From: a virus
IMG/VR virus record: IMGVR_UViG_3300025108_004281
Coordinates: 28,050-92,049 of that record
Direction: 5' to 3' (one strand)
DNA length: 64,000 bases
The position numbers and the translations under genes are program-made. Within the stretch, counting starts at the first letter, position 1. Every line of letters starts with the position of its first letter. Shown in pieces: positions 550 through 55,268 of this stretch. The notes beneath the pieces were generated by a model that was given only the letters and a program-made list of their open reading frames with translations, was not told the origin of the DNA and did no database searches.

Positions 550-1143
550 TCAACCGTTTTTCCTTTTAAATGATGTATCGCCATCTGCGTACTTGTGATT
601 AATTTTGCTGTGATGTTGTTCATCTGCTCTAACTTTTTTAATCAAATCACTTAACTTAGCATCATCCTTCATTTTATAATATTTGATAGCAAGTTTAGGT
701 GCAGGTACATTTGGCACTTCACCACTTTCAACTAATTCTAAATAACTAGTATAACTTCTTACTGCCTCTTCTTCAAAGTAAGCAATCATTCTGTGTGCTG
801 TTTTGTAATCTATTATATACAATACAGAGTAAAATAACATAAAAATAAATTGAGCAAACAAAACCAAATACCTTTCAAACCAATTAGGTTGTGCTATCTC
901 AATAAAGAACATTAAGTGCATTCTTTCATTCTCTGCTTCTGCTAACATCTCTCTTATGTCAGGCCCATACCCAACTTTCATCTTACGCAGGCTTTTCATG
1001 TGTAACCACATACCAGCAACCATGCCAGGAACACCTGCTACTGTTTCTAATACAACTGCTCTATGACCATAACGTTTAGCAAAGAATGTATCTGCTATAA
1101 AGCGAAAAAACTTTGTCATGCTCATTGCTAACTTGTCTCGCAT
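550..1143 (-). CDS. aox: Alternative oxidase (ubiquinol oxidase, di-iron)
   Basis: AOX motifs LETVAGVPGMV, EAENERMHL, FEEEA, RADEQHH; AOX-type rather than PTOX-type (LETIARVPYF). Confidence 0.93.
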   Translation of the reverse strand: MRDKLAMSMTKFFRFIADTFFAKRYGHRAVVLETVAGVPGMVAGMWLHMKSLRKMKVGYGPDIREMLAEAENERMHLMFFIEIAQPNWFERYLVLFAQFIFMLFYSVLYIIDYKTAHRMIAYFEEEAVRSYTSYLELVESGEVPNVPAPKLAIKYYKMKDDAKLSDLIKKVRADEQHHSKINHKYADGDTSFKRKNG

Positions 1144-7223: not shown

Positions 7224-7490
7224 TTATAAGTGATCTTTACCGACTGCGGCTAGAATAGTTTCTAGTGCATCAAACTTGTCTGTTTCGTCAGTAAATGATG
7301 CCTTATGAGCAACTTTAACTGCTTTCATAAGGATTGCAGGTTTAATATCCATTTCTTCTGCTATTGCTTTAACAGTTTCTCTTAAACCTACTTGGAGTGA
7401 TTCTACTTCGTAAAGGACTTGGTCTCCTTCTTGAACTAGTTTTTTAAGTCTTGCGACTTCTTCTTGATTGAATGTTTTATTGAACGCCAT
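7224..7490 (-). CDS. Small dsDNA-binding protein (T4 DsbA/GapR-like)
   Basis: 88-aa helical protein with LRETVKAIAEEMDIKPAILMKAVK pattern; sigma70 promoter and AGGA SD upstream. Confidence 0.6.
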   Translation of the reverse strand: MAFNKTFNQEEVARLKKLVQEGDQVLYEVESLQVGLRETVKAIAEEMDIKPAILMKAVKVAHKASFTDETDKFDALETILAAVGKDHL

Positions 7491-7525
7491 AATAATCCTG
7501 TGTGTATGTAATTAATTATCTAAGT

Positions 7526-7554
7526 ATTATACTAAAAAAGTAGATTGTGGTCAA
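7526..7554 (-). promoter_or_regulatory. sigma70-type early promoter
   Basis: TTGACC-N17-TATAAT on minus strand. Confidence 0.75.
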
Positions 7555-7557
7555 GTA

Positions 7558-7863
7558 CTAATATTCAGTACTGGCCTCAAAGTCCCAATCGACCACATCT
7601 AATTCTTCTGCAAGTATATCTGCAATTTTAGTGCCTTCCTCAGCACTAATATCTTCTTCAGTTAATACTTCGTACACTTGTACATCATCTGATTCGTAAT
7701 GGACTACTTCTGCTTTAACTTTATTGCCACTACCATCAAATGATGAAAATACTTTGGTAGGAACAACACTTTGAACTATGTCAAAAAAGTCAACAATATC
7801 ATCACGTGATATTTCCTTTTCAACTACAATCCTTACAAAATGTTTTCTTACCTTATCTACCAT
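7558..7863 (-). CDS. Hypothetical acidic protein
   Basis: 101-aa ORF in operon context. Confidence 0.7.
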   Translation of the reverse strand: MVDKVRKHFVRIVVEKEISRDDIVDFFDIVQSVVPTKVFSSFDGSGNKVKAEVVHYESDDVQVYEVLTEEDISAEEGTKIADILAEELDVVDWDFEASTEY

Positions 7864-16144: not shown

Positions 16145-19100
16145 TTACTCCGCCATCACAAACGTAATCCAAGCATGGGTGCTTGTTCCAAACGATCTAC
16201 TTGCTCCTGTTATCGCTTCTGTGACTTTCAAGTCTACGTTAGCATCACTTGAGAAACTTCCAAATGCTGTTGGAGATCCACTGCTTCCGCCGCCGTCTAC
16301 TGTTCTTGTTGTCCAGTCACCACTAACAGCATTCATGCTGTATTTGTTTGACGCATATTGATAACCATGGGCCATAATTGCTACTGGTGGATAATCAAAT
16401 CCTGTAAACTGTACTTCAATCTCAGCACCTGTATCGCTGGTAATTGTTGTAGCATTAATGCCTGCTGTAGTATCTGATATACTTGATAGTGCGCCTGACG
16501 TACTGTAATTGAGTTTCATTCTTTCATAAGTGTTACCACGTGTTACGGAACCGCCGCCTCCGCCGCCACCTGGCTCACCTTTTTGTCCTTTATCTCCAGC
16601 CGCACCATCTGATCCATCTGCTCCATCTGATCCTGCTGGTCCTTGTGGACCTGCTACTGTACTTGGTTCACCCTTAGCACCTGTTGGTCCTTGTGGACCT
16701 GTTGGACCTGCATTACCGTCACTACCTGCTGTACCCTGTGGTCCAGTGTCACCTTTTTGTCCTTTATCACCTGTCGGTCCAGTTGGGCCACCTAATTCAC
16801 CTTTGTCACCCTTACTTCCTGTTGGACCTACTGGTCCTACGTTACCTTGAGGTCCTGTTGGTCCTGTAGCACCTGCTGAACCCTGTGGACCTACTTCACC
16901 TTTAGTACCCTGTCCACCCTGTGGTCCAGTTGCACCTTGTGGTCCTAATTCTCCTTTTTGTCCTTTGGCTCCATCGTTACCAGCATCTCCCTGAGGACCT
17001 GTTGGACCTGCTGGTCCTGTTGCTCCTGCTGGTCCTGTTGGACCTGCTACTGTACTATCAGCACCTGTGGCTCCCTTCTGTCCTTGAGCACCTTGAGGTC
17101 CTGTGGCACCTTGAGCACCAGTTGAACCTTGTGGACCTATATCACCTTTTGATCCTTGTGGACCTGTTGGACCTGCTACACCTTGAGCACCAGTTGTACC
17201 TTGAGCACCTGTGGCTCCAGTTTCACCTTTTTGTCCAGTATCACCTTTTTGTCCTTTATCTCCTGCTGATGAGGCCGCTACCCATGAACTATCATAATAA
17301 ATGTATAGATCACCGTCATCACTTGCCCACCATAAGTCGCCTTCAGAGCCACCACTTGGGGAAACATTTGCAACGGCAACTGAGGCATCAACACTATCTA
17401 ATGCTGAACTTATATCAACATTACTACTACCGCCACTAATTGAAATGACATTACCTGTCATACTTAGTGTTTGGTTAGTACCAGCACCTATTTCACCTTT
17501 TTGTCCTTGTGGTCCAGTTGCTCCAACTTCACCTTTATCTCCAGCAGTTCCTTGTGGTCCTGTTGGTCCTGCATCTCCTTGAGGTCCTGTTGCTCCAGTG
17601 GCTCCTTTATCTCCGGCAGTTCCTTGTGGTCCTTGTGGGCCAACTTCGCCTTTTGCTCCATCGTTTCCTGCTGGTCCAGTTGCACCTGCTGGTCCTGTTG
17701 GTCCAACATCTCCTTGTGCACCTTTATCTCCAGTTGCACCAGTTGTTCCCTGGGCACCTTGATCTCCTTTTGAACCTTTGTCTCCATTGGCTCCTGCAGG
17801 TCCTGTATTACCTACATTTCCTTGTGGACCTGTGGCTCCTGTTGCGCCAGTCTCTCCTACTTCACCCTTTTGTCCTTTTGCCCCATCACTACCTGCTGGG
17901 CCAGTTGCTCCAGTATCACCTTTGACTCCTGAACCTGAACCGGTAGCATCGATTGTAATTGTTTGAGCATTGCTATCTGCTGATATTGTTGCATTAGCAC
18001 CTGCTATAAATGTTAATTGGTCTGCGGCTACATTTGCTACTACACTATTACCACCTTGTACACTTACAGTTTTAAATGCTTCGCCGGCTCCACCGCCTCC
18101 GCCACTGCCTGTGTTATTAATTGTAATAGTATCAGTACTTGCATCAGCAGTAATCGAAATACCGCTACCTGCTACAAAATTTAATGTATCTTGATTATTT
18201 TCTGCAATAATTAAGTCTTGTCCAGCAACACTAATATTTTTAAATATACCATCATTTAGTTGGGTATTATTAATTGTTACTGTATCGCCTGTAACTGATG
18301 TTGTTATACCTGTACCACCAACAATATTAAATGTATCGTCTTTGGCACTAGCATCTGTTGAACCTGAATCGCCTGTAAAACTCTTATAATATCTTAATGC
18401 AGATACATTAGAGGTAATTGCTGTATTAACTTCTGCTTTAGTGTACTTGTCAATACTACTATCATTTAATGTAGCATCAATTATAATTGAATCTGTTCCT
18501 GGATTAGCAGTAAAACTTACATTACTACCGCTAACTAAATTTAATGTATCATTATTGTTATCTGCAATAAGAAGTGTGCCATCTACATCGACGTTTTTAA
18601 ATACGCCTGTGATAGCATCTGTTTTTGAAATCTGTATAGTATTGTTGGCTGTATATTGATTTACATCAATACCTGTTCCGCCCTCAAATCTAATTGCGTG
18701 GGTGGCACTTGTGGCACTGATTGTATTTGCTGAGCCAACACTAGTAACTGTGCTTATAGCATTTTGTAATTGTGCTGATGCAATATTGGCATCAACTTCT
18801 GCTTTGCTGTAAACACCTAAATTTGTTCTTGCTGTTGCGGCATCTGGTAAGTCACTTAAATTATTTGTTTTGTTGACTGCGTTTGCTAATGTTGCCGCTG
18901 TAATAATAGTTGAGCCATCTTCTAATCTAATGGCCGAGTCTGCTGTTCCTCTAAATCTGTTTGCAAATATATTTAAATATTTGTAATTGCTGTTACCAAT
19001 GTCATATGACATTGTTGTATCTGGTGCACTTGTGGCACTCTTAGGAATATAATTTGCTAAGTTGGCAGTTAGTTGACTAGCAGTTAAACCACCAGTTTGT

Positions 19101-19822
19101 AATGTTGTCCAACTAACACCACCTGAACCATTTGTTACAAGTACTTGTCCGTTAGTACCATCTGATGTTGGTAATGTAAATGCGTTAGCAAATGTTGTAC
19201 TTCTATTAGAATTTATTTTTAATGCTGGTGTTGTACTACTTGCACTACCTACATAAAATACAGTACTGTTTGCACTTCTAACTTCAATATGACCATCTGT
19301 GCTTTTTGTTCCTAATATTAAACTATGTTGTGAACTAAGTTCTACATCTGCGGCATCGTTTGAACTAATAACAAATCTTGTTTTAGCATCAAATCCTGCA
19401 CTTTGACTGTTAGTAGGATAGTTTGCGTTATTTAATATACCTGCGTATGCTGTGATATTAGCATTATCACCAAAGTTTCTACCTGAGAAGATATTTGTAT
19501 TGCCATTCACATTGTGAATGCTTAATGGTGTTGGTAGTGTATATGCTGTTGAGGAAACAGTAATAACGTTTGCAGATTCAGTTACAGTTGTTGCACCTGA
19601 GCCTTGTATCTTTTTAAAGTTTAATTGTGAACCGTCTTTTGCTGAGAATAGTCCAATGCCTGAAGCACCAACATTAGCACCACCAGTAACGGCGGCATTG
19701 GCATCTGAAGACAAACTATCTTGTGCTACAAAAATTCCTTGTGCAGAATCGTAAACTAGGATCTGATTATCGGTGATCCCGTCTATATTAAAAGTTAAAT
19801 TATCTCCTGTTACATTTGGCAT
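16145..19822 (-). CDS. Collagen-like tail/head fibre protein
   Basis: Two long Gly-X-Y tracts and about five DTLNxVAGxGI-type shaft repeats; late promoter 19854-19861. Confidence 0.85.
16563..17930 (-). repeat. Collagen Gly-X-Y coding repeats (two blocks split near 17280-17480)
   Basis: GPTGPQG/GDKGQKG/GATGPAG repeats with 9-nt periodicity. Confidence 0.9.
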
Positions 19823-19873
19823 AGTATTCCTATTCTAATTTGCAATTATAATGTATTTATCAACTAAGTTGAT

Positions 19874-20756: not shown

Positions 20757-21305
20757 TTATAATTCCTCTGTGGTAACAACTTTATATATTTCGCTATTAC
20801 CTACTGTTAATTGTAATTTAGCAACATCTTTTTTATTGGTCATGTAAACTGTTGATTTCCAACCATCACCAGTGTGTGTTACTTTTGCATCCATACTAAG
20901 TTTGCTAACTTTTTTAACCCAATCAATATTTGGCCAATACTTGTATGCTACATATCTATATTTATTAAAAAACAGTTGTCTTCTAAGTATTTGATTATTT
21001 GATGTAATAACATCATATTCTTCTTGCGAACGTATACCTTGTACACTAATTATACTATCTTTAAATTTTCTAATAAATTTTTTAGCAACTTTGCTATCTG
21101 AAAAATACACTGAATAATTTTTGTGCCATGCAAATTTCATTGTGTCCCAGCAGTACTGATTTTGAAATTTGTATATTTCTTCTAATACCATAGGATCGTG
21201 TATAAGCCAATTGCCTTTTACTTCTGCTTTGATATGATACTTATTCCACCATAATTTAAATGATGGCCGGATATCTATACCGGAAACAGTATTGCCTAAA
21301 TTCAT
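20757..21305 (-). CDS. Hypothetical protein
   Basis: 182-aa basic ORF between clpA and lysozyme. Confidence 0.65.
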   Translation of the reverse strand: MNLGNTVSGIDIRPSFKLWWNKYHIKAEVKGNWLIHDPMVLEEIYKFQNQYCWDTMKFAWHKNYSVYFSDSKVAKKFIRKFKDSIISVQGIRSQEEYDVITSNNQILRRQLFFNKYRYVAYKYWPNIDWVKKVSKLSMDAKVTHTGDGWKSTVYMTNKKDVAKLQLTVGNSEIYKVVTTEEL

Positions 21306-23479
21306 TTGACAGTGAATTCAAACTGCTCAATATAATCTACAAGTACTACGCCTTCCTCTATTTTATCAAACAATATTTTTTTACTAATTGGCTTCTTGAC
21401 AACATCTTCGAACAATCTTTTTAAAGGCCTTGCACCCATGCTAGGTTCAAATCCGTTATCTGCAATATATTTCTTAGCCGCTTTGGTAAGTTCAATACTA
21501 ACTTTACTGTCATTACTAGCAAGTAATTCGTTTGTTTCTCTAACAATTTTATCAATAATAAGATTAACTTCTTTCATTCCTAGTTTGTTAAACTTAACAT
21601 AAGAGTCTATCCTGTTTCTAAACTCTGGTGTGAAGAAACTTTTGACTGCTTTTATATCTGTGTCTGTATGTGATGTTTCACCAAATCCAATCTTGCTTGT
21701 TTCTGCCTTGGCGGCACCTAAGTTACTTGTCATTATAAGTGTAACATTACTGAAGTCTACTTGCTTGCCTGTTGCACCTGTAAGTCTACCATCGTCCATT
21801 ACTTGTAGTAACACTTGTAATACTTCTGGTGCGGCTTTCTCTACTTCATCTAGTAGCAACACACAATTAGGATTCTTATCAATTTCAGAAAGCAACATGC
21901 CTTGTCCTAGTTCGCCTTCTGCGTGTCCTACATAACCTGGAGGAGCACCAATTAGTTTACTTACACTATGTCTTTCCATATACTCTGACATGTCAAACTT
22001 AACAAGTTTAATATCTAATTCGTCTGCTAATGCTCTTGCTGTTTCTGTTTTACCTACACCAGTCGGTCCTACAAATAGGAAACTACCAATTGGTTTGTTT
22101 GGTTCTCTTAGGCCTGCTTTACTAACAAGTATACTTTCTACTAGTTTATCGACTGCTTCGTCTTGTCCAAACACTTTCTTTTTAATCTTTTTATCTAACT
22201 TGCTGAAGCCTTTTGTGTCTTTAACATCTACTACTTCTTGTTTAATTTTAGCAATCTTTGATACCTGTGCTACTACTGAGTCAAGATTTACAACTTTCTT
22301 TTCTAATACTTTAGTGACTGCACCTGCGGCATCTACAATGTCTAATGCTTTGTCTGGAAAGTACTTATTCTTAATATATCTGTCTGCCAATTCACATGCT
22401 TTTTCTATAGCACCTTCTTCATACTTGACTTTGTGGAACTCTTCGTAGTATGGCTGTAAGCCTTGGCATATTTTAATAGTATCTTTAAGTGTTGTTTCTT
22501 CTACGTCTAGTCTTGCAAACCTACGCATCAATGCTCTATCTTTCTCAAACGTACTTGCAAACTCATCTGGTGTAGTTGCACCAATACACAATAGTTTACC
22601 TTTGCCTAACAATGGCTTTAACATGTTTGCCGCATCTACTTGACTGCTACCAGCACTACCGGCACCCATAATCATATGTATTTCGTCAATAAACAGAATA
22701 GCATTTTCGTTCTTTTCTATCTGTTCTAAAACTGTTTTTAGTCTTTCTTCAAAGTCACCTCTAAACTTTGTACCTGCTAACATTGTACCAACATCTATTT
22801 GATAAACAGTTTTATCTTCTAGTGTTTTAGGAACTTGCTTGTTGATAATTTTCCATGCCATACCTTCTGCAATAGCAGTTTTACCTACTCCGGGTTCACC
22901 AACTAAGCATACGTTATTCTTTTTACGTCTAGCAAGTATTTCAACAACATCATTTACTTCTTCGCTTCTACCAATGAGAGGATCAATACTTCCGTTCATT
23001 GCTTCTTCGTTTAAGTTTTTAATGTAGTCTTGTGTTTCTTCTACTAGTTCGCCTTCAACGACATCGCCTAATATTTCAATTAAATTTTCTCTATGGCAAC
23101 CATTAACTGCTAAAAAATATGCACTATGTGAATTTTCTTCATTTGTAATACTAACTAGCAAATCAATTGCAGATATTTTATCTCTACCATTAAAGATACT
23201 TTGTGCAAATGCTCTTTGAAAGACACGTTCAACTGCTACAGTTTTCTTAGGCTTGCCTGTGCTACCGCCTTCTGATTTAAGATTGTTGTACTCATCGTCA
23301 TTAAGATAAGTCACAATGTCTGCTTCTAATTGTTTAATTTCAACATTACATTCACCTAATACTTTTTTAATCTCTTTATCTTTAATAAGAGCCAGAGCAA
23401 CATGCTCTAGAGTCATATACTCATGACTAAATTGATTAGATATTTCGTATGCTTTTTCTATAATTCCTTCAACATTCAT
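21302..23479 (-). CDS. clpA: ATP-dependent Clp protease ATP-binding subunit ClpA
   Basis: Clp-N domain, Walker A GEPGVGKT and [11 protein letters not shown] ClpP-docking loop, GARPL; no ClpB middle domain. Confidence 0.92.
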
Positions 23480-29017: not shown

Positions 29018-29811
29018 CTTATCTTCTTGTTTTTACTAACTGCTTTTTCTAGCAGTGATAATTTAATGTTTTTACTTTGAGCATAATTGATTAATGCTTC
29101 TGTGTCCTTAGGAAAACAATGTCCACCAAAGCCAAACTCGCCATCAGTCCCGGGCACTTTCATATGACTATTGCCCATGCGTGGATCTCTTGTTAGCATA
29201 TCTGTAAACTGATCCCAACTAACCATACTGCTACTTGCTTGTTGTAGGTTGTATAGTTCATTAAAGAAAACAACTTTAGTTGCTAACCAACTATTAATAG
29301 TATACTTAATCAAACTTGCAGTACTCAAGTCTACTTTGAATGTCGGAACTACTCTCACATTGCTATACCTATTGTATGCTTTTTCAACTGTGTCGCAGTC
29401 TTTCCATTTCCCTCCGAGTACTTGCATGTTTGGATTAACAAAGTCCTGTGAAGCATTTGCTTCAGTGAGAAACTCTGGATTATAAACTATTTTTAATTTG
29501 TAGGATTTTTTAAATATATGTAAGTAGTCAGGTATAATTGTGCTTTTAACAACAACTATACCTTTATACTCACAATCGTTTAATTCTTGTAGAACTTCAG
29601 TAACAATGTCTACATTAACACTACCGTCTTCATTAGGTGGTGTCGGAACACAAACGAAAGTAAGTGGTGGATCAAAGTCATTGACAAGTTTATCAATTGT
29701 GTTGTCCTCTGAAATTTTAGGATCCACCACGTACTGTTCTATATTAGAAAAGCCATCACTGACAGCACTTCCTACAAAACCTTTACCTATAATTCCTATT
29801 TTATACTTCAT
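29014..29811 (-). CDS. UDP-glucose/GDP-mannose dehydrogenase-family protein (short form)
   Basis: GKGFVG, CVPTP, KST, YNPEFL, GFGGHCFPKD. Confidence 0.88.
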   Translation of the reverse strand: MKYKIGIIGKGFVGSAVSDGFSNIEQYVVDPKISEDNTIDKLVNDFDPPLTFVCVPTPPNEDGSVNVDIVTEVLQELNDCEYKGIVVVKSTIIPDYLHIFKKSYKLKIVYNPEFLTEANASQDFVNPNMQVLGGKWKDCDTVEKAYNRYSNVRVVPTFKVDLSTASLIKYTINSWLATKVVFFNELYNLQQASSSMVSWDQFTDMLTRDPRMGNSHMKVPGTDGEFGFGGHCFPKDTEALINYAQSKNIKLSLLEKAVSKNKKIR

Positions 29812-31342
29812 TAAGTAACCAATTTAATTTTTTATTTACATACCTATTTACTGTTTGATCTGTAATATAAGTTGCTTTTTGAACAAGACCTAATCCTGAC
29901 AAGGTTTCTTTTTGTTCATACCAGTCGTTTCTTGATGATGCTATGCCTTGTGCCATGACACTTTGCCAAGTAAATGCTTCAATATGATTTGTTATGACAT
30001 TTCTTTTTTGTATTGCTTTTGAGGCTATGTCAGTACGTTCTTTTGCTTCTGATTTATTAGTGTATTCGTTTGACCATTCTAATGTATTTTCGTCTATGGT
30101 GTAACCAAATCTTTCTGGGTATATATCTATATCAGCAAAGGCGCCTTCGTCCCATGCTAACCATTCTCCACCAAAGTCTTTGTAGCCAGGATGATTCTTT
30201 TTAGGCTCAATGATTAATGTTATAGTACCAGCATTATCAACAAGTAAATTGTCTTCACAGTATCTTAAATTTTTTTCAAACTCTTCGTAACTGTCGTTTG
30301 CTAATCCAAATATAAAACCTGAACTAATCCAAAAGTCATCTATTTCTTTTCTTAACCTTTGAGAAACATACACAAGATCTTCTATTGTGCTTTTCTTTCT
30401 TGTGGCTTTTATTGCGGCATTACCAAAACTTTCTATACCAAAGTTAGCACCATTCATTCCAATTTCTTTATACAAATCAATTTGGTGAGGTCTTTTTGCC
30501 ATAACATCAAGTCTAGCAAAAGATGTTATTCTGGGTTTGAAACTTAATTTATTAACAACTTTAGCAAGTAATTCAAGTTTTTCATCTGACTCATTAATTG
30601 TATCGTCTGCGGCGTAAAAGTGTGTAATACCGTATGTATCATATGCGTGTTGCATTGTGTAATAAAGTTGCTCTTCGCAATTCATATATAAAGTCTTAGA
30701 CGCTCGTAATGGATAATTGCAAAAACTACAATTAAATTTACAGCCTAATGCAACTTCAAATCCTATTACGTCAGTAGATTCTAAAAAGTCATCATCTTTA
30801 AATAAACCGTATGTAATAGGTTTTTCAATGTCATAATTATAATTATGGTTAGCAAAAATATTTGTAAACTCTGGATTTTGTATAAACTTTGACATGTCTT
30901 TACCAGCAACAAAATCTGTTAGCATTTCTGCACATCTACCTAAGAAAATACCATCGCAATGTTTCATGTATTCCATGTCGTTACGTTGTACTCTTCTATT
31001 GCCTCCATATAATATTTTTGCATTAGGCAATTTACTTTTAATTTTACGAGCAAGTGCAATATACTCTTGCTCTAGTCCCATAGATAGAGTGGCACTTATA
31101 CATATAAACTGTACATCTGAATTGCGTAAAAAATTTATTACACCTTTGATTAAGTCTTCTTCGTCAAAATGAAAACAAAAATCTATAACAGTTGATTCTA
31201 CACCTAACTTTTCAAATTCGTGTTTGATAACATGAGCACCTAAAGATCTGTAGTTTGCTGGAAAAGTAGAACGAATTATTTCTTTAGATATTCTTGGCTT
31301 TTGTTTGTTAGATTCAGATATAACAACTGCTTTCTTTTTCAT
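29801..31342 (-). CDS. B12-binding-domain radical SAM protein
   Basis: CKFNCSFC, ADD, GIES, FIFGL; N-terminal cobalamin-binding-like region. Confidence 0.8.
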   Translation of the reverse strand: MKKKAVVISESNKQKPRISKEIIRSTFPANYRSLGAHVIKHEFEKLGVESTVIDFCFHFDEEDLIKGVINFLRNSDVQFICISATLSMGLEQEYIALARKIKSKLPNAKILYGGNRRVQRNDMEYMKHCDGIFLGRCAEMLTDFVAGKDMSKFIQNPEFTNIFANHNYNYDIEKPITYGLFKDDDFLESTDVIGFEVALGCKFNCSFCNYPLRASKTLYMNCEEQLYYTMQHAYDTYGITHFYAADDTINESDEKLELLAKVVNKLSFKPRITSFARLDVMAKRPHQIDLYKEIGMNGANFGIESFGNAAIKATRKKSTIEDLVYVSQRLRKEIDDFWISSGFIFGLANDSYEEFEKNLRYCEDNLLVDNAGTITLIIEPKKNHPGYKDFGGEWLAWDEGAFADIDIYPERFGYTIDENTLEWSNEYTNKSEAKERTDIASKAIQKRNVITNHIEAFTWQSVMAQGIASSRNDWYEQKETLSGLGLVQKATYITDQTVNRYVNKKLNWLLNEV

Positions 31343-43452: not shown

Positions 43453-45306
43453 TTAAGTGGAAAACAAAACTTTGCCCCAACCTTGTCTTCTTTTGTAATA
43501 CATTCTGTCTAAGTATTCTTCTTCACTGTCGCATGGCATGATTAAATCTAAGGTGTATTCTGTTTTGTCTTTTAATAATTCTGAGTCCTCATCATTGATG
43601 TATTCTAAAAAGTTATATCCAAAATTCATTTGTGTTGGATAAGATACAGTTAGGTGGCTAACATAAAACGTTTGTAGTTTCATAAGTTGTGGGTAATACT
43701 TCTCTGGCAAGTCTAACCATTCTCTACTGTAATGCTTATCAATGAACTGAAATATTTTTAGTGGCTCCTTGTGAAAGTCGCTTTGTGCTGACCACATAAG
43801 TGTATGTCCACTAAAGCCATCAGCAATACCTGTCTCTAAGTATTCTGTGAGTTGTGCTTTTGCTGTGTCAAATAACTGCTTAACATAACCATCGTCTTCT
43901 TGTATAAGTGTCCACAGTCTATTATAAAACTCCAAGTAACTCATATCTTTATACTTGCGTAGGAACCTGCTGATGATCTGTGTCCAGCCGTAGTTGTGAA
44001 AATTATTGATCATCCAAGCATACATCCAACTGTCTATAAACTTAGGCATCGGCATGTCCTTAGTTCCGCGGACTAACGTGACACTTTCGCTGATGCCATC
44101 TTCTTCCTCAAAGCCTGATATATAATCTTTCACAACTATCGTGTCTATTTCGTGTTCTGCTCTTTGCTCAGGTGTATTAAGGTGTGCGTTCTCTAGTAAT
44201 TGTGCTAACCAACTTTCAATAGCATTGTGTTGACCCATTTCAATTACATCACATAAACCTTTACTCCAACTTTCAAATGTTTCTTTGGGTAAGCCTAGTA
44301 TAAGTTCTGTGTAACTAGGTATCTGTTCTCTATTACATATATCAAATATGTGTTTGAGATTACTAAACTCCATGTTACGTCTTTTAATTTCTTCTAGTAC
44401 ATCCATGTCCATACTTTGTACACTTAAAGTTAGTCCTCTATTGAAGCCACTGCTGATAAACTTCTTAACAATTTCCATTATCTCTTCTGAACTGTTCTTA
44501 TACCATGTGGCATCAACAACCTGTGGATAGCCAAACTCTTTTTGTAATGCTACAAGTTCTTCTGTAAACTTCATATCTCTATCTGTAAACACACCAAAGT
44601 TTGCGTCTGCTATTGTTACATAATCCATTTTGTTATGTGCCATCCAATGCAGTTCTTGTAATACTTTTTCTTCAGGAAACTTTTTAAGTTTACTATATGT
44701 TAAGCCACCCCAGTCACAGAATGTACAAGCAAATGGACAGCCACGATTAGTTTCTAATGTGCCATTCCATAGTACGCCTGGATTGTCTGCTATAATCTTT
44801 TCAAACACACCTGTTAAGTAAGGACTTGGTATGTCTAATTCTGTTAGTCTTGGATAGTTATATATTTTTTCTATTAGTTTGCCGTTGATTAGATTTCGTA
44901 ATATATCTGTAAAACTTAATTCGCCTTCTGCTAAACTAATTGAGTCTACATACTTGTGATGCTTAAAGAATTCTTCTTCATCTGGTCTATCAGTAACTTG
45001 TGGGCCACCAAATACTATTTTGCATTTAGGATATTTTTGTTTGACTTTTTGAGCAACTGCTTTGCTCCATTCCCAGTTCCACATGTAACAACTAAATGCT
45101 ATTATGTCTGGGTCTTCTAGTCTATCAACTAGAGTATCTACATTTTCTCTGCGGAATATTATGTCTTTGAGATCTACATTTTCTTTTATATCATCAAACT
45201 GACTAGCATAACTCCATAAACAGCCAATGCTGTAAGGAATCCAGTAACCAGTTTTTCCTGCAATACCAAATCTAAAGTTAGGTTGGCACAGATATAAGTT
45301 TAGCAT
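43453..45306 (-). CDS. B12-binding radical SAM protein
   Basis: FSCYMWN/GGPQ cobalamin domain, ETNRGCPFACTFCDWG, ELILGLP. Confidence 0.9.
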   Translation of the reverse strand: MLNLYLCQPNFRFGIAGKTGYWIPYSIGCLWSYASQFDDIKENVDLKDIIFRRENVDTLVDRLEDPDIIAFSCYMWNWEWSKAVAQKVKQKYPKCKIVFGGPQVTDRPDEEEFFKHHKYVDSISLAEGELSFTDILRNLINGKLIEKIYNYPRLTELDIPSPYLTGVFEKIIADNPGVLWNGTLETNRGCPFACTFCDWGGLTYSKLKKFPEEKVLQELHWMAHNKMDYVTIADANFGVFTDRDMKFTEELVALQKEFGYPQVVDATWYKNSSEEIMEIVKKFISSGFNRGLTLSVQSMDMDVLEEIKRRNMEFSNLKHIFDICNREQIPSYTELILGLPKETFESWSKGLCDVIEMGQHNAIESWLAQLLENAHLNTPEQRAEHEIDTIVVKDYISGFEEEDGISESVTLVRGTKDMPMPKFIDSWMYAWMINNFHNYGWTQIISRFLRKYKDMSYLEFYNRLWTLIQEDDGYVKQLFDTAKAQLTEYLETGIADGFSGHTLMWSAQSDFHKEPLKIFQFIDKHYSREWLDLPEKYYPQLMKLQTFYVSHLTVSYPTQMNFGYNFLEYINDEDSELLKDKTEYTLDLIMPCDSEEEYLDRMYYKRRQGWGKVLFST

Positions 45307-45388
45307 AGCAGTATTTATCGTGTATAAATCACAGCCAAAGGAAAGCAGGCACTAGGCCTGCTTATTGAATACTTGGTCCTTGTATTGC

Positions 45389-45679: not shown

Positions 45680-46669
45680 TTATCTCCTCAATTGGTTATC
45701 TAGTTTATCTAGTAGATCATATCGATCTTTTTCAAACGTATGTGCAAGATTATAAGGATTGAATCTCTTGTATGTTGTGCCTCTAATTCTACTTGCGACC
45801 TCTTCTACTATTAATTTGTCCTTTACATCTTTGAATCCGGCAATATCTGATATGGTATTTTCGAACTCCACTCCGTCTACATTTTCCAGTAACTTGAATA
45901 AGGCTAAATCAAATTCAAGATAACTGAACCCAAACTGATCCTCGTCTGAACTAGATATTCCTAATCCATCTGTTGGAACAGCAAACACGACACTATCGGG
46001 TACACCTTGCATTTCAGCAAGAGCAGGAACTTCCCAACTCTTACTTAATGATTGTATTGGCGATACATCGCCCACGTCTCCGTGTAGTGTCCAAAACCCT
46101 GCGGCTAGTTCTGAAAAATTATCAGTACTTGCTACAAAGCCTTGACTCGCACCAGCAAGATTGTACAACGTAATCATACGCAATCTGGCTCGAATGTTTC
46201 CTTTTCTAATCTTACTAGAGTGATCATTGCTGATTAAACTAGCATCAATTTTATATTCTTGTTGAAGCAAACTTTCGTATGCTTCTGTTAAATCAATATG
46301 TCTGTGGTCTATGCCTAGTGCCTTTGCTGTTTCAAAGCCTCTGTCTGTTTCATCTTCTATTTGATTAATAGGCATTGTTACACCAATTACATGATAGCCT
46401 GCATCTCTAAATAAACTTGCAGTTAAGGCACTATCTATGCCTCCACTGAGTCCAACACAGACGTTGCTTATTTTGTATTTGTTGGCGTACTCAACTAAGT
46501 TCTGTACTATATCATTTCGTAGCACTTGCAGTTTTTCAACTGACATGTACTTTCCGCTTTTGATGTAACTGTCTAGCAGTTTTTCAAATGCAGGAGACAA
46601 CACAGGCTTTCTGTTATAATCAAGTATTAACTTTTTTAAATTTGCTTGTTCAGTTTTCTTATTCATCAT
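45680..46669 (-). CDS. nadE: NH3-dependent NAD+ synthetase
   Basis: GLSGGIDS, GNIRARLRM, STDNFSE, GFWTLHGD, PTDGL. Confidence 0.9.
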   Translation of the reverse strand: MMNKKTEQANLKKLILDYNRKPVLSPAFEKLLDSYIKSGKYMSVEKLQVLRNDIVQNLVEYANKYKISNVCVGLSGGIDSALTASLFRDAGYHVIGVTMPINQIEDETDRGFETAKALGIDHRHIDLTEAYESLLQQEYKIDASLISNDHSSKIRKGNIRARLRMITLYNLAGASQGFVASTDNFSELAAGFWTLHGDVGDVSPIQSLSKSWEVPALAEMQGVPDSVVFAVPTDGLGISSSDEDQFGFSYLEFDLALFKLLENVDGVEFENTISDIAGFKDVKDKLIVEEVASRIRGTTYKRFNPYNLAHTFEKDRYDLLDKLDNQLRR

Positions 46670-53437: not shown

Positions 53438-53501
53438 AACAATATTTATCGGTCAAAAAAAAGCCCCGTTATTAAACGAGGCTTAATTTTATTGTGTTAG
53501 T

Positions 53502-54166: not shown

Positions 54167-54394
54167 TTACTTCTTATCTCCCAATAAATGAATGATAATA
54201 ATTGCTACGAGTAAGCCGACTAAGCCGCCTTCTCCTAAACCTGATACGAGTGCTGTGATGTTTCCAACTACGTCGCCTACAAAAGATGTGCTACCGAATA
54301 CTAAACCTGCAACGATACCTAATCCTAAAAGGCTGACGAAGATTGATGTGAGTCCACTAACGAAAGAGTGAACCATCTTCATTGCGTTATCCAT
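54167..54394 (-). CDS. Small hydrophobic membrane protein
   Basis: AGGAGG SD, Gly-rich TMs (LGEGGLVGLL); TAAATA upstream. Confidence 0.75.
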   Translation of the reverse strand: MDNAMKMVHSFVSGLTSIFVSLLGLGIVAGLVFGSTSFVGDVVGNITALVSGLGEGGLVGLLVAIIIIHLLGDKK

Positions 54395-54584
54395 AAATGA
54401 ATACCTCCTATTATATTACTCTTGCCCAAGAGTATGAAGAAATTAATTTTTCTTCAGTAATATTTACATTTTTGTTACAGATTGTTACAGAATACTGAAC
54501 AGTCTATGGTGTCGTTAGATAGGTTACGAGGTGTATAGGTAAAAAATATGGTAAAAATCTCATAAATTTGACAGATTTTACTGG

Positions 54585-54607
54585 AAAAGCACCTCCGAAG
54601 AGGTGCT
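54585..54607 (-). terminator. Rho-independent terminator after the YRG peptide
   Basis: AGCACCUC-UUCG-GAGGUGCU plus UUU. Confidence 0.8.
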
Positions 54608-54616
54608 CCCACAAGC

Positions 54617-54772
54617 CTAAGGATAGAAAGGATTGTCTGTGATATAATTAGGTAGTTCGCTTTTTTCATAACGGACTCCTCTGTAATTATAATCTACAGT
54701 TTTCTTCTTATCTTTCCTAAGTTGTTTTAGTACAGCACGTCGAACGATTGCTGTTTCTTGATACTTAGTCAT
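54617..54772 (-). CDS. 51-aa basic peptide with YRGVRY motif (DUF4278/GS-inactivating-factor-like)
   Basis: Not in track; MTKYQETAIVRRAVLKQLRKDKKKTVDYNYRGVRYEKSELPNYITDNPFYP; AGGAGG SD; follows the riboswitches. Confidence 0.75.
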   Translation of the reverse strand: MTKYQETAIVRRAVLKQLRKDKKKTVDYNYRGVRYEKSELPNYITDNPFYP

Positions 54773-54797
54773 GTCATCCTCCTAATTAAAGTAAGAT

Positions 54798-54860
54798 GCG
54801 TTCCTTCGGTATTTTACCTACTTCCGTCGTCGCTCTACATTTAGAGTGGCGATGAACGAG
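54798..54860 (-). ncRNA. Glutamine riboswitch aptamer 2 (glnA RNA motif)
   Basis: CGUUCAUC-hairpin-GACGGAAGUAGG-loop-CCGAAGGAACGC consensus. Confidence 0.85.
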
Positions 54861-54864
54861 TTCG

Positions 54865-54925
54865 GCGTTCCTTCGTCACAATTGACTACTTCCGTTCACT
54901 GCTACATTTAGAGTGAATGAACGAC
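54865..54925 (-). ncRNA. Glutamine riboswitch aptamer 1 (glnA RNA motif)
   Basis: CGUUCAUUCAC-loop-GUGAACGGAAGUAGUC-loop-GACGAAGGAACGC; late promoter 54946-54953 upstream. Confidence 0.85.
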
Positions 54926-54953
54926 GTAACATTCTGTTACAAAAATATTTATC

Positions 54954-54981
54954 AAAAAAAAGCAGGCCGAAGCCTGCTTTT
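54954..54981 (-). terminator. Rho-independent terminator
   Basis: AGCAGGC-UUCG-GCCUGCU plus U-tract. Confidence 0.85.
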
Positions 54982-55001: not shown

Positions 55002-55268
55002 TTAGACAGAGCCGTTTGCAAGTGCTTTATAACCTGCGGCAATAACTGCTCTAGATGGAGTACCAAGTCTATATACATTTCTTGATCTTCCTTTAGTGTC
55101 AGTCACTGTGTTAAGGTAGATTGGGAAACCTTTGAATCTTAGTGATTGAATCACTGCCTGTGGGTTTCCAGTTCCGAAGTAAGATACCATTTGTGCTGAA
55201 GACAAAGTTCTTCCTTCTTGCAAAGCATTTAATACTTTTGCTTCTTTAGTTAATGTTGCTGTAGTCAT
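55002..55268 (-). CDS. Winged-HTH DNA-binding protein
   Basis: KVLNALQEGRTLS...VIQSLRFKGFPI...YRLG; AGGAGG SD; sigma70 promoter 55322-55349. Confidence 0.7.
   Translation of the reverse strand: MTTATLTKEAKVLNALQEGRTLSSAQMVSYFGTGNPQAVIQSLRFKGFPIYLNTVTDTKGRSRNVYRLGTPSRAVIAAGYKALANGSV

Follow-up and report, generated by a model that had tools for sequence, protein, structure and literature searches.

Organization of the transcription unit

The DNA analysed here, referred to as the window, is a stretch of 64,000 nucleotides belonging to a 92-kb virus record. Its minus strand carries, from position 54981 down to position 54585, a terminator, a promoter motif, a small hairpin, two aptamers, a hairpin around the Shine-Dalgarno (SD) sequence, an open reading frame (ORF) and a hairpin with a UUCG loop. 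Every part of this unit that a first-pass annotation of the same DNA had described was found on the minus strand, including the motif GATAAATA at 54946-54953. All features of the unit given below lie on this strand.

The 5' border of the unit is formed by the intrinsic terminator of the upstream winged-helix gene (55002-55268). This terminator (54958-54981), located directly before the promoter motif, exhibits a 10-bp stem, a UUCG loop and a run of eight U, with a folding energy of -16.2 kcal/mol (z -3.9). The motif GATAAATA resembles a T4-type late promoter, a reading supported by its enrichment, its strand bias and its conservation in relatives. At the predicted 5' end of the transcript, positions 54926-54940 fold into a small hairpin with a 6-bp stem and a 3-nt loop (-4.3 kcal/mol, z -3.7). 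This hairpin is present in many related leaders, with exchanges of C-G for U-A pairs, and may play a role in RNA stability.

Downstream of the aptamers, the SD sequence AGGAGG was seen at 54778-54783 as previously claimed, 5 nt upstream of the ATG at 54772, and the gene of a basic 51-residue protein extends from there to 54617, stop codon included. It is followed by a hairpin with a UUCG loop and four U (54585-54610; -18.5 kcal/mol, z -2.6), which is probably the terminator of the unit. The first-pass annotation had presented it as such; the hairpin itself stood up to analysis, but it was not called by a simple terminator scan because only four U follow. A hairpin and T-run matching this terminator are kept in the related viral locus L035 and in the copies found in SAR86 genomes. 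Since the layout was found again in 38 viral loci and in seven SAR86 loci, the element is not a product of chance. These data confirm that a giant uncultured ocean phage possesses a stand-alone monocistronic unit, presumably expressed late, in which tandem glutamine switches precede the gene of a 51-residue protein.

The motif GATAAATA occurs 13 times in the window against 5.3 expected copies, a number reached by one of 100 shuffles. Twelve of the 13 copies share the coding strand with nearly all genes, and most are found upstream of a gene start, at a distance of a few to about 60 nt. Related phage leaders carry (T/G/C)ATAAATA in the corresponding position, and this is the T4 late-promoter word. 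Given that the phage leaders carry this T4-type word and that the SAR86 chromosomal copies, unlike the phage copies, have no late-type promoter word directly before the aptamers, late expression of the unit can reasonably be inferred. Other sites of the motif include 53443-53450, 45312-45319 and 19854-19861 (-). In several copies, the distance to the ATG that follows is just 4-6 nt, too short to accommodate a ribosome site.

In the window, the cassette is followed by the genes of a small membrane protein and of a signal-peptide protein. The stretch just downstream of the cassette (54167-54546) is not shared with L035 (4190-4830), a relative that is otherwise 80-97% identical; the window encodes there a 75-residue membrane protein with its own promoter-like site, and L035 a 168-codon ORF. 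Four further genes of the window (21302-23479, 29801-31342, 43453-45306 and 16145-19822 (-)) encode a double AAA ATPase of the ClpB-like type, two radical SAM proteins with B12 binding and a collagen-repeat protein of 1225 residues.

Two glutamine aptamers in tandem

With regard to the leader RNA, a covariance-model search supported the glnA core that had been recognized from the letters of the window. Aptamer 1 (54862-54925) and aptamer 2, which lies beside the ribosome site (54795-54860), matched the glnA RNA model RF01739 (type 1 glutamine aptamer) with 49.2 and 54.3 bits, respectively. Both exceed the gathering score of 35 bits and cover model positions 1-53 in full, and no RF01739 match was found in the 92-kb record beyond these two. 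They had been described as two tandem repeats of about 62 nt; they are indeed in tandem, but their actual lengths are 64 and 66 nt.

Plain MAFFT alignment of long-armed and short-armed aptamers placed the first hairpin wrongly, and a covariance model built from the short-armed copies was used instead. This model aligned 66 aptamers, of which 38 were distinct. In the latter, every cell of the 12 modelled pairs was a standard pair, which corresponds to 100% pairing for the true pairs versus 21-52% for slid-partner controls. Compensatory changes on both sides were observed in six of the seven variable pairs, in agreement with the earlier description of stems that differ and are still paired. P1 is invariant and hence uninformative on covariation, as is expected of core nucleotides. 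The three-helix architecture, comprising P1, the first hairpin and the second hairpin, is thus backed by covariation. The core words are invariant in 32 aligned aptamers, and the cytosine following P1 is present in at least 90% of them. We consider it confirmed from these sequence comparisons that both RNAs are true type 1 glutamine (glnA) aptamers in tandem, predicted to bind glutamine.

The upstream and the SD-proximal aptamers constitute two position-specific lineages, which differ in the second hairpin. In all 37 viral loci with enough upstream DNA, one or two aptamers (33 tandem, 4 single) end 19-36 nt before the ATG; the 38th viral locus begins inside an aptamer. A 13-nt insert in the first hairpin arm (approximately 54836-54848 and 54900-54912 (-)) is identical in both aptamers of the window, whereas their closing stems differ. 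Most phage copies and the chromosomal copies of SAR86 have retained the insert; among the 80 cellular glnA loci listed, it was seen only in the SAR86 one.

Expression platform

A hairpin at 54775-54798 (-6.5 kcal/mol, z -3.9), kept in all distinct leaders, would sequester the ribosome site. Cytosine 54798, the first base beyond P1 of aptamer 2, opens the 5' strand of this hairpin, and the 3' strand covers part of AGGAGG and the spacer, with most of AGGAGG contained in the hairpin. In all 25 distinct leaders, the cytosine after the SD-proximal P1 and the next 4-7 bases pair with the ribosome-binding region; in the window, the pairing involves the cytosine and the four following bases. Compensating changes in this hairpin were observed in three lineages (L006, L010 and L011). 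When the leader was assessed as a complete switch, a helix joining the ribosome site to the aptamer's 3' tail was found to be present, and its ligand-dependent melting is predicted. The minimum free energy fold of the whole leader was no better than that of shuffled sequences (z -0.4), which is expected for a small aptamer with a tertiary fold but lends the switch no support either.

This arrangement can be compared with the leader of gifB, the gene of the inactivating factor IF17 in Synechocystis (Klaehn et al. 2018, PMC6212724). In its account of the structures of Ren et al., that paper describes an ON switch in which glutamine promotes a long-range pair that uses the cytosine following P1, the short helix attached to P1 melts and the ribosome site is freed. 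Given that the platform of the window matches this proposal, we read the unit as a translational ON switch, the pairing being supported by sequence and covariation, and glutamine binding and melting being proposed by analogy. The two leaders have in common the aptamer class and core (RF01739), the proposed translational ON logic, based on pairing of the ribosome site with the cytosine next to P1 and adjacent bases, and a small regulatory protein as cargo. Unlike gifB, the phage unit has two tandem aptamers, a late-type promoter and a long conserved insert in the first hairpin arm. Its cargo belongs to a different protein family, devoid of a DUF4278 or IF7-like part, and the cellular home of this family is SAR86.

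In many relatives and in SAR86, the tail of aptamer 1 is the anti-SD word of aptamer 2. In the window, the tail of aptamer 1 is not an anti-SD word, a point that weighs against the proposed switch as far as the coupling of this aptamer to the ribosome site is concerned. The P1 strands of aptamers 1 and 2 are identical, and strand-swapped pairings between the two aptamers are therefore possible.

A conserved family of small proteins

The 51-residue basic ORF, which had been proposed from the letters of the window, is supported by codon bias, in-frame indels and homologues in large protein sets. We found 13 close relatives of the peptide in a set of 5.8 billion proteins, 20 cluster representatives in an all-against-profile search, and 38 loci encoding a relative in a scan of IMG/VR. 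The length varies between 46 and 54 codons, always in frame. Within the 12 C-terminal codons, variation is concentrated at the third codon position, with 20 extra alleles versus 6 at the first and 4 at the second, and pair differences comprise 1167 synonymous versus 445 non-synonymous changes. Judging from this codon-level signal, the ORF is a real gene under purifying selection and belongs to an unannotated family. The peptide had no match in Pfam (E<=1) or PHROGs and no usable match in the ESM Atlas, and blastn and tblastn searches with the cassette against 50,697 deposited phage records returned no match.

Two blocks are conserved in the family, an N-terminal one that forms a basic helix and a C-terminal one in which proline and aromatic residues abound; the part between them is variable. 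AlphaFold2 predicts a helix at residues 3-24 with a pLDDT of about 90 and nothing beyond this N-terminal helix. The peptide of the window holds one YRGVRY word, as had been noted. YRG is restricted to one subclade, comprising the window, its closest relatives and a few loci; most family members and the SAR86 copies exhibit unrelated residues in its place. One metagenomic relative (P0012) continues, beyond its YRG part, in the frame of a 64-codon ORF that overlaps the gene in the window (54475-54669 (-)), and is probably a frameshifted or mis-sequenced copy.

Distribution in SAR86 and other cells

In a profile search, the peptide was found in eight of 266 genomes of the SAR86 order, in one case on a contig of at least 1.57 Mb, and in none of 399 other sampled Gammaproteobacteria. 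A pattern scan of 185,579 species, each represented by one genome, yielded a single locus, which also belongs to the SAR86 order. The chromosomal copies of SAR86 comprise the tandem aptamers, the same platform, the same protein family and the terminator, and aptamer 1 of the window is identical to theirs at 58 of 58 bases. Their neighbours are housekeeping genes (zinc alcohol-dehydrogenase-type, 5'-nucleotidase, ilv, and ahpC/ahpF with a LysR gene), and no phage genes were found next to them. A long-read study reported RF01739 inside deletion variants of SAR86 populations (PMC12379486), which fits the patchy 3% occurrence of the cassette.

In our cellular sample, the glnA aptamer is common beyond cyanobacteria and is found upstream of genes of several kinds: those of small peptides in SAR86 and other Gammaproteobacteria and, as read by eye from the translations, ammonium-transporter-like and other nitrogen-linked genes in marine Alphaproteobacteria. 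Loci L052, L081, L090, L094, L103 and others of marine Alphaproteobacteria combine tandem aptamers and a long conserved leader with ammonium-transporter-like genes. No obvious SD-sequestering hairpin was seen beside P1 in these leaders, and their platform may differ. In a Porticoccaceae MAG (L108, approximately 7396-7745), a tandem aptamer is followed by a 60-residue peptide with three YRG units, which scores 22.8 bits against a DUF4278 cut-off of 25.3 bits. The middle unit of this peptide closely resembles the T-loop word of a SAR86 PII protein.

The phage and its probable host

The carrier is a jumbo T4-related marine phage. Its DNA polymerase is 41-48% identical to those of jumbo myoviruses of 350-490 kb (Phosso, Atu_ph07, 121Q and GAP32), and CheckV estimated the 92-kb record to be 25% complete, which corresponds to a phage of about 370 kb. 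The alternative oxidase (AOX) that had been reported was verified: the gene lies at 550-1143 (-) and matches the Pfam AOX model with 232.9 bits. The encoded protein shares 70-77% identity with AOX proteins from many SAR86-order genomes, and 117 of the 266 genomes of this order gave a match, with 53-77% identity. On the basis of this resemblance, the AOX is probably a host-derived metabolic gene and constitutes an independent marker of the host. Given that the cassette is present in SAR86 chromosomes and that the AOX resembles that of SAR86, two independent sequence links point to SAR86 as the likely host, and the cassette would have been transferred from host to phage. A phage of about 370 kb would be unusual on a host with a genome of 1-1.7 Mb, which counts against SAR86. 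The cyanobacterial parallel that the first-pass annotation had drawn was not supported; as indicated by the chromosomal copies and the AOX, this type of cassette is that of SAR86 and not that of cyanobacteria. We know of no cultured phage of SAR86, and the cassette serves as a sequence marker linking a jumbo phage with this group.

Other carriers are T4-like phages with a capsid protein 65% identical to those of Mosig, HTVC008M and Melnitz, in which the cassette is located right after the capsid gene. The neighbours of the cassette differ between phage lineages, and no association with lysis genes was seen. In L035 and L038, the flanking proteins are 95-97% identical to those of the window and the leader is almost identical, but the peptide shares just 47% identity with that of the window; it retains the first codons and the C-terminal block, between which the middle part has been replaced. 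The closest relative of the window peptide (73% identity) is encoded by L003, which has other neighbours. These comparisons indicate that the cassette is exchanged or fast-evolving.

Proposed function

The role of glutamine riboswitches is understood in cyanobacteria, in which inhibitors of glutamine synthetase (GS) are under their control. In the window, a doubled glutamine sensor would drive a different conserved mini-protein, one named in no database. Its family occurs both in SAR86, an uncultured heterotroph that ranks among the most abundant in the surface ocean, and in several phage lineages that probably infect SAR86. In the explanation that we favour and regard as probable, the phage acquired the cassette from its SAR86 host and set it under a late promoter. 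In the absence of glutamine, the platform hairpin would block ribosome entry. Bound glutamine would draw the cytosine after P1 into the long-range pair of the aptamer core, the hairpin would melt and translation would be turned on, with the two aptamers sharpening the response. The protein by which the host itself signals high glutamine would then be produced at a late stage of infection, at which glutamine is abundant, and it would probably bind a protein of the host's nitrogen metabolism. Along these lines, the peptide may tune nitrogen assimilation, as the first-pass annotation had suggested. The cassette could help to reveal how the nitrogen status of the host is sensed by phages late in infection.

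The peptide might instead be unrelated to nitrogen enzymes, with glutamine serving as a read-out of host state or infection stage and the protein acting on nucleic acid, ribosomes, virion assembly or the timing of lysis. Its strongly basic character and its single long helix would suit such a role, as would the position of the cassette right after the capsid gene in the T4-like carriers and the membrane and signal-peptide proteins encoded after it in the window. A link to lysis timing has also been suggested, as a speculation, for the glutamine riboswitch of phage Melnitz (Buchholz et al. 2022, PMC9004378). Nevertheless, these neighbours are not conserved between phage lineages, and in SAR86 the cassette is a normal chromosomal gene without phage neighbours, which implies that its native role is cellular. 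We therefore consider this reading rather unlikely.

A second possibility is that the peptide mimics the T-loop of the signal protein PII and lures away proteins that recognize this loop, for instance the uridylyltransferase, the ammonium channel or GS-modifying enzymes. When the peptide was compared with PII proteins encoded by the SAR86 carrier genomes, an ungapped alignment of residues 30-41 with the T-loop stretch of one paralogue gave 7 matches in 12 positions, a value reached by 20 of 3000 shuffles in this post hoc comparison, for which a single target had been chosen. Among the matching residues are the YRG..Y word and the LP after it, the latter being nearly invariant in the family. 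However, YRG..Y is limited to the subclade of the window, the spacing is different in the SAR86 chromosomal copies, and the matching part is predicted with low confidence by AlphaFold2. Mimicry of PII thus appears improbable. The broader version of this idea is likewise a long shot: SAR86 and its phages would share a fast-evolving, glutamine-induced mini-protein whose middle part, in the clade of the window, copies the PII T-loop and serves as a late decoy. If this were true, the decoy, produced in large amounts for the proteins that read PII, would disconnect the uptake and assimilation of nitrogen from the signalling of the cell itself, and the swaps of the middle part between near-identical phages would reflect the matching of host alleles or an arms race.

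The first-pass annotation had related the peptide to the DUF4278 (YRG-motif) family, which includes the gifB product. As a DUF4278/gifB-type factor, it would inactivate GS, and the phage would shut off the host enzyme at high glutamine. GS-inactivating factors are not known from Proteobacteria, and the host is of a proteobacterial type. The HMM search gave no match of the peptide to PF14105 at E<=1, although the same model detected, as a positive control, a 60-residue Porticoccaceae peptide with three YRG units (22.8 bits, E 1.2e-4). For profile comparisons, we assembled 31 YRG proteins encoded behind glnA aptamers on genome contigs, almost all of them cyanobacterial. With hhalign, 28 members of the family aligned to these riboswitch-linked DUF4278 proteins with a probability of 0.2%; the YRG subclade alone gave a local match of 10 columns to the DUF4278 unit, with a probability of 48%. 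The basic C-terminal part of IF17 is reported to be crucial for its interaction with GS (PMC6212724), and the alignment of the family with nine such parts from the analysed loci had a probability below 1%.

The peptide does resemble DUF4278 proteins (PF14105), which include IF17 and short IF17-like proteins, in being small and linked to a glutamine riboswitch, and in the single YRG..Y word of the window's subclade. It differs from them in lacking HMM or profile membership, in having one YRG word rather than repeats, and in possessing conserved blocks without a DUF4278 counterpart. Across the family, repeated YRG units were not found, the window peptide having one and most relatives none. Given the lack of a Pfam match, the low probabilities obtained with the DUF4278 profile and the IF17 part, and the restriction of YRG to one subclade, we rejected a DUF4278/gifB-type identity. 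The association of cyanobacterial glnA aptamers with YRG proteins, seen in our sample and in PMC6212724, and the presence of a full GS gene in at least one SAR86 carrier genome are consistent with GS as a target. On balance, we regard inactivation of GS by such a factor as very unlikely.

Finally, the weak terminator with only four U after the ORF would allow the aptamers to control downstream genes by read-through, or the RNA itself could be the product and the ORF incidental, but this is scarcely credible in view of the purifying selection at the codon level, the in-frame length variation, the ribosome site and ATG kept at a set distance from aptamer 2 in all loci, the different downstream genes of close relatives, and the promoter-like site and ribosome site that the next gene has of its own.

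Relation to published glutamine riboswitches

Glutamine riboswitches of phages and tandem glnA RNAs have already been published; what is added here is the peptide family and the tandem layout in a jumbo phage. Tandem glnA RNAs from marine metagenomes have been linked to a more digital control, with nitrogen genes as cargo, namely those of PII, GS, GOGAT and ammonium transporters (Weinberg et al. 2010, PMC2864571). The same aptamer class is arranged there head to tail as in the window; in contrast to those cases, the cargo of the window is a 51-residue protein and the carrier is a phage.

The closest published phage examples are the Methylophilales phage Melnitz and the Pelagibacter phage Mosig (Buchholz et al. 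2022, PMC9004378), which are also marine, T4-like and equipped with RF01739. They possess one aptamer each, whereas the window has two. In Mosig, a late-type promoter word and the aptamer are followed by an annotated hypothetical protein, which also has 51 residues. With hhalign, this protein aligned to the peptide family with a probability of 0.35%, and the small ORFs of Mosig and Melnitz show no demonstrable homology to the family. The aptamer of Melnitz (L044/L047, MZ577097.1, approximately 46398-46560) overlaps the 3' end of the annotated tmRNA gene, and it was read as being part of this gene and controlling it (PMC9004378). Downstream of this aptamer, we observed an SD-sequestering hairpin, a platform similar to that of the window, and then a 32-codon ORF that lies on the same strand and had not been annotated. 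The published interpretation of tmRNA control may thus need to be revisited.
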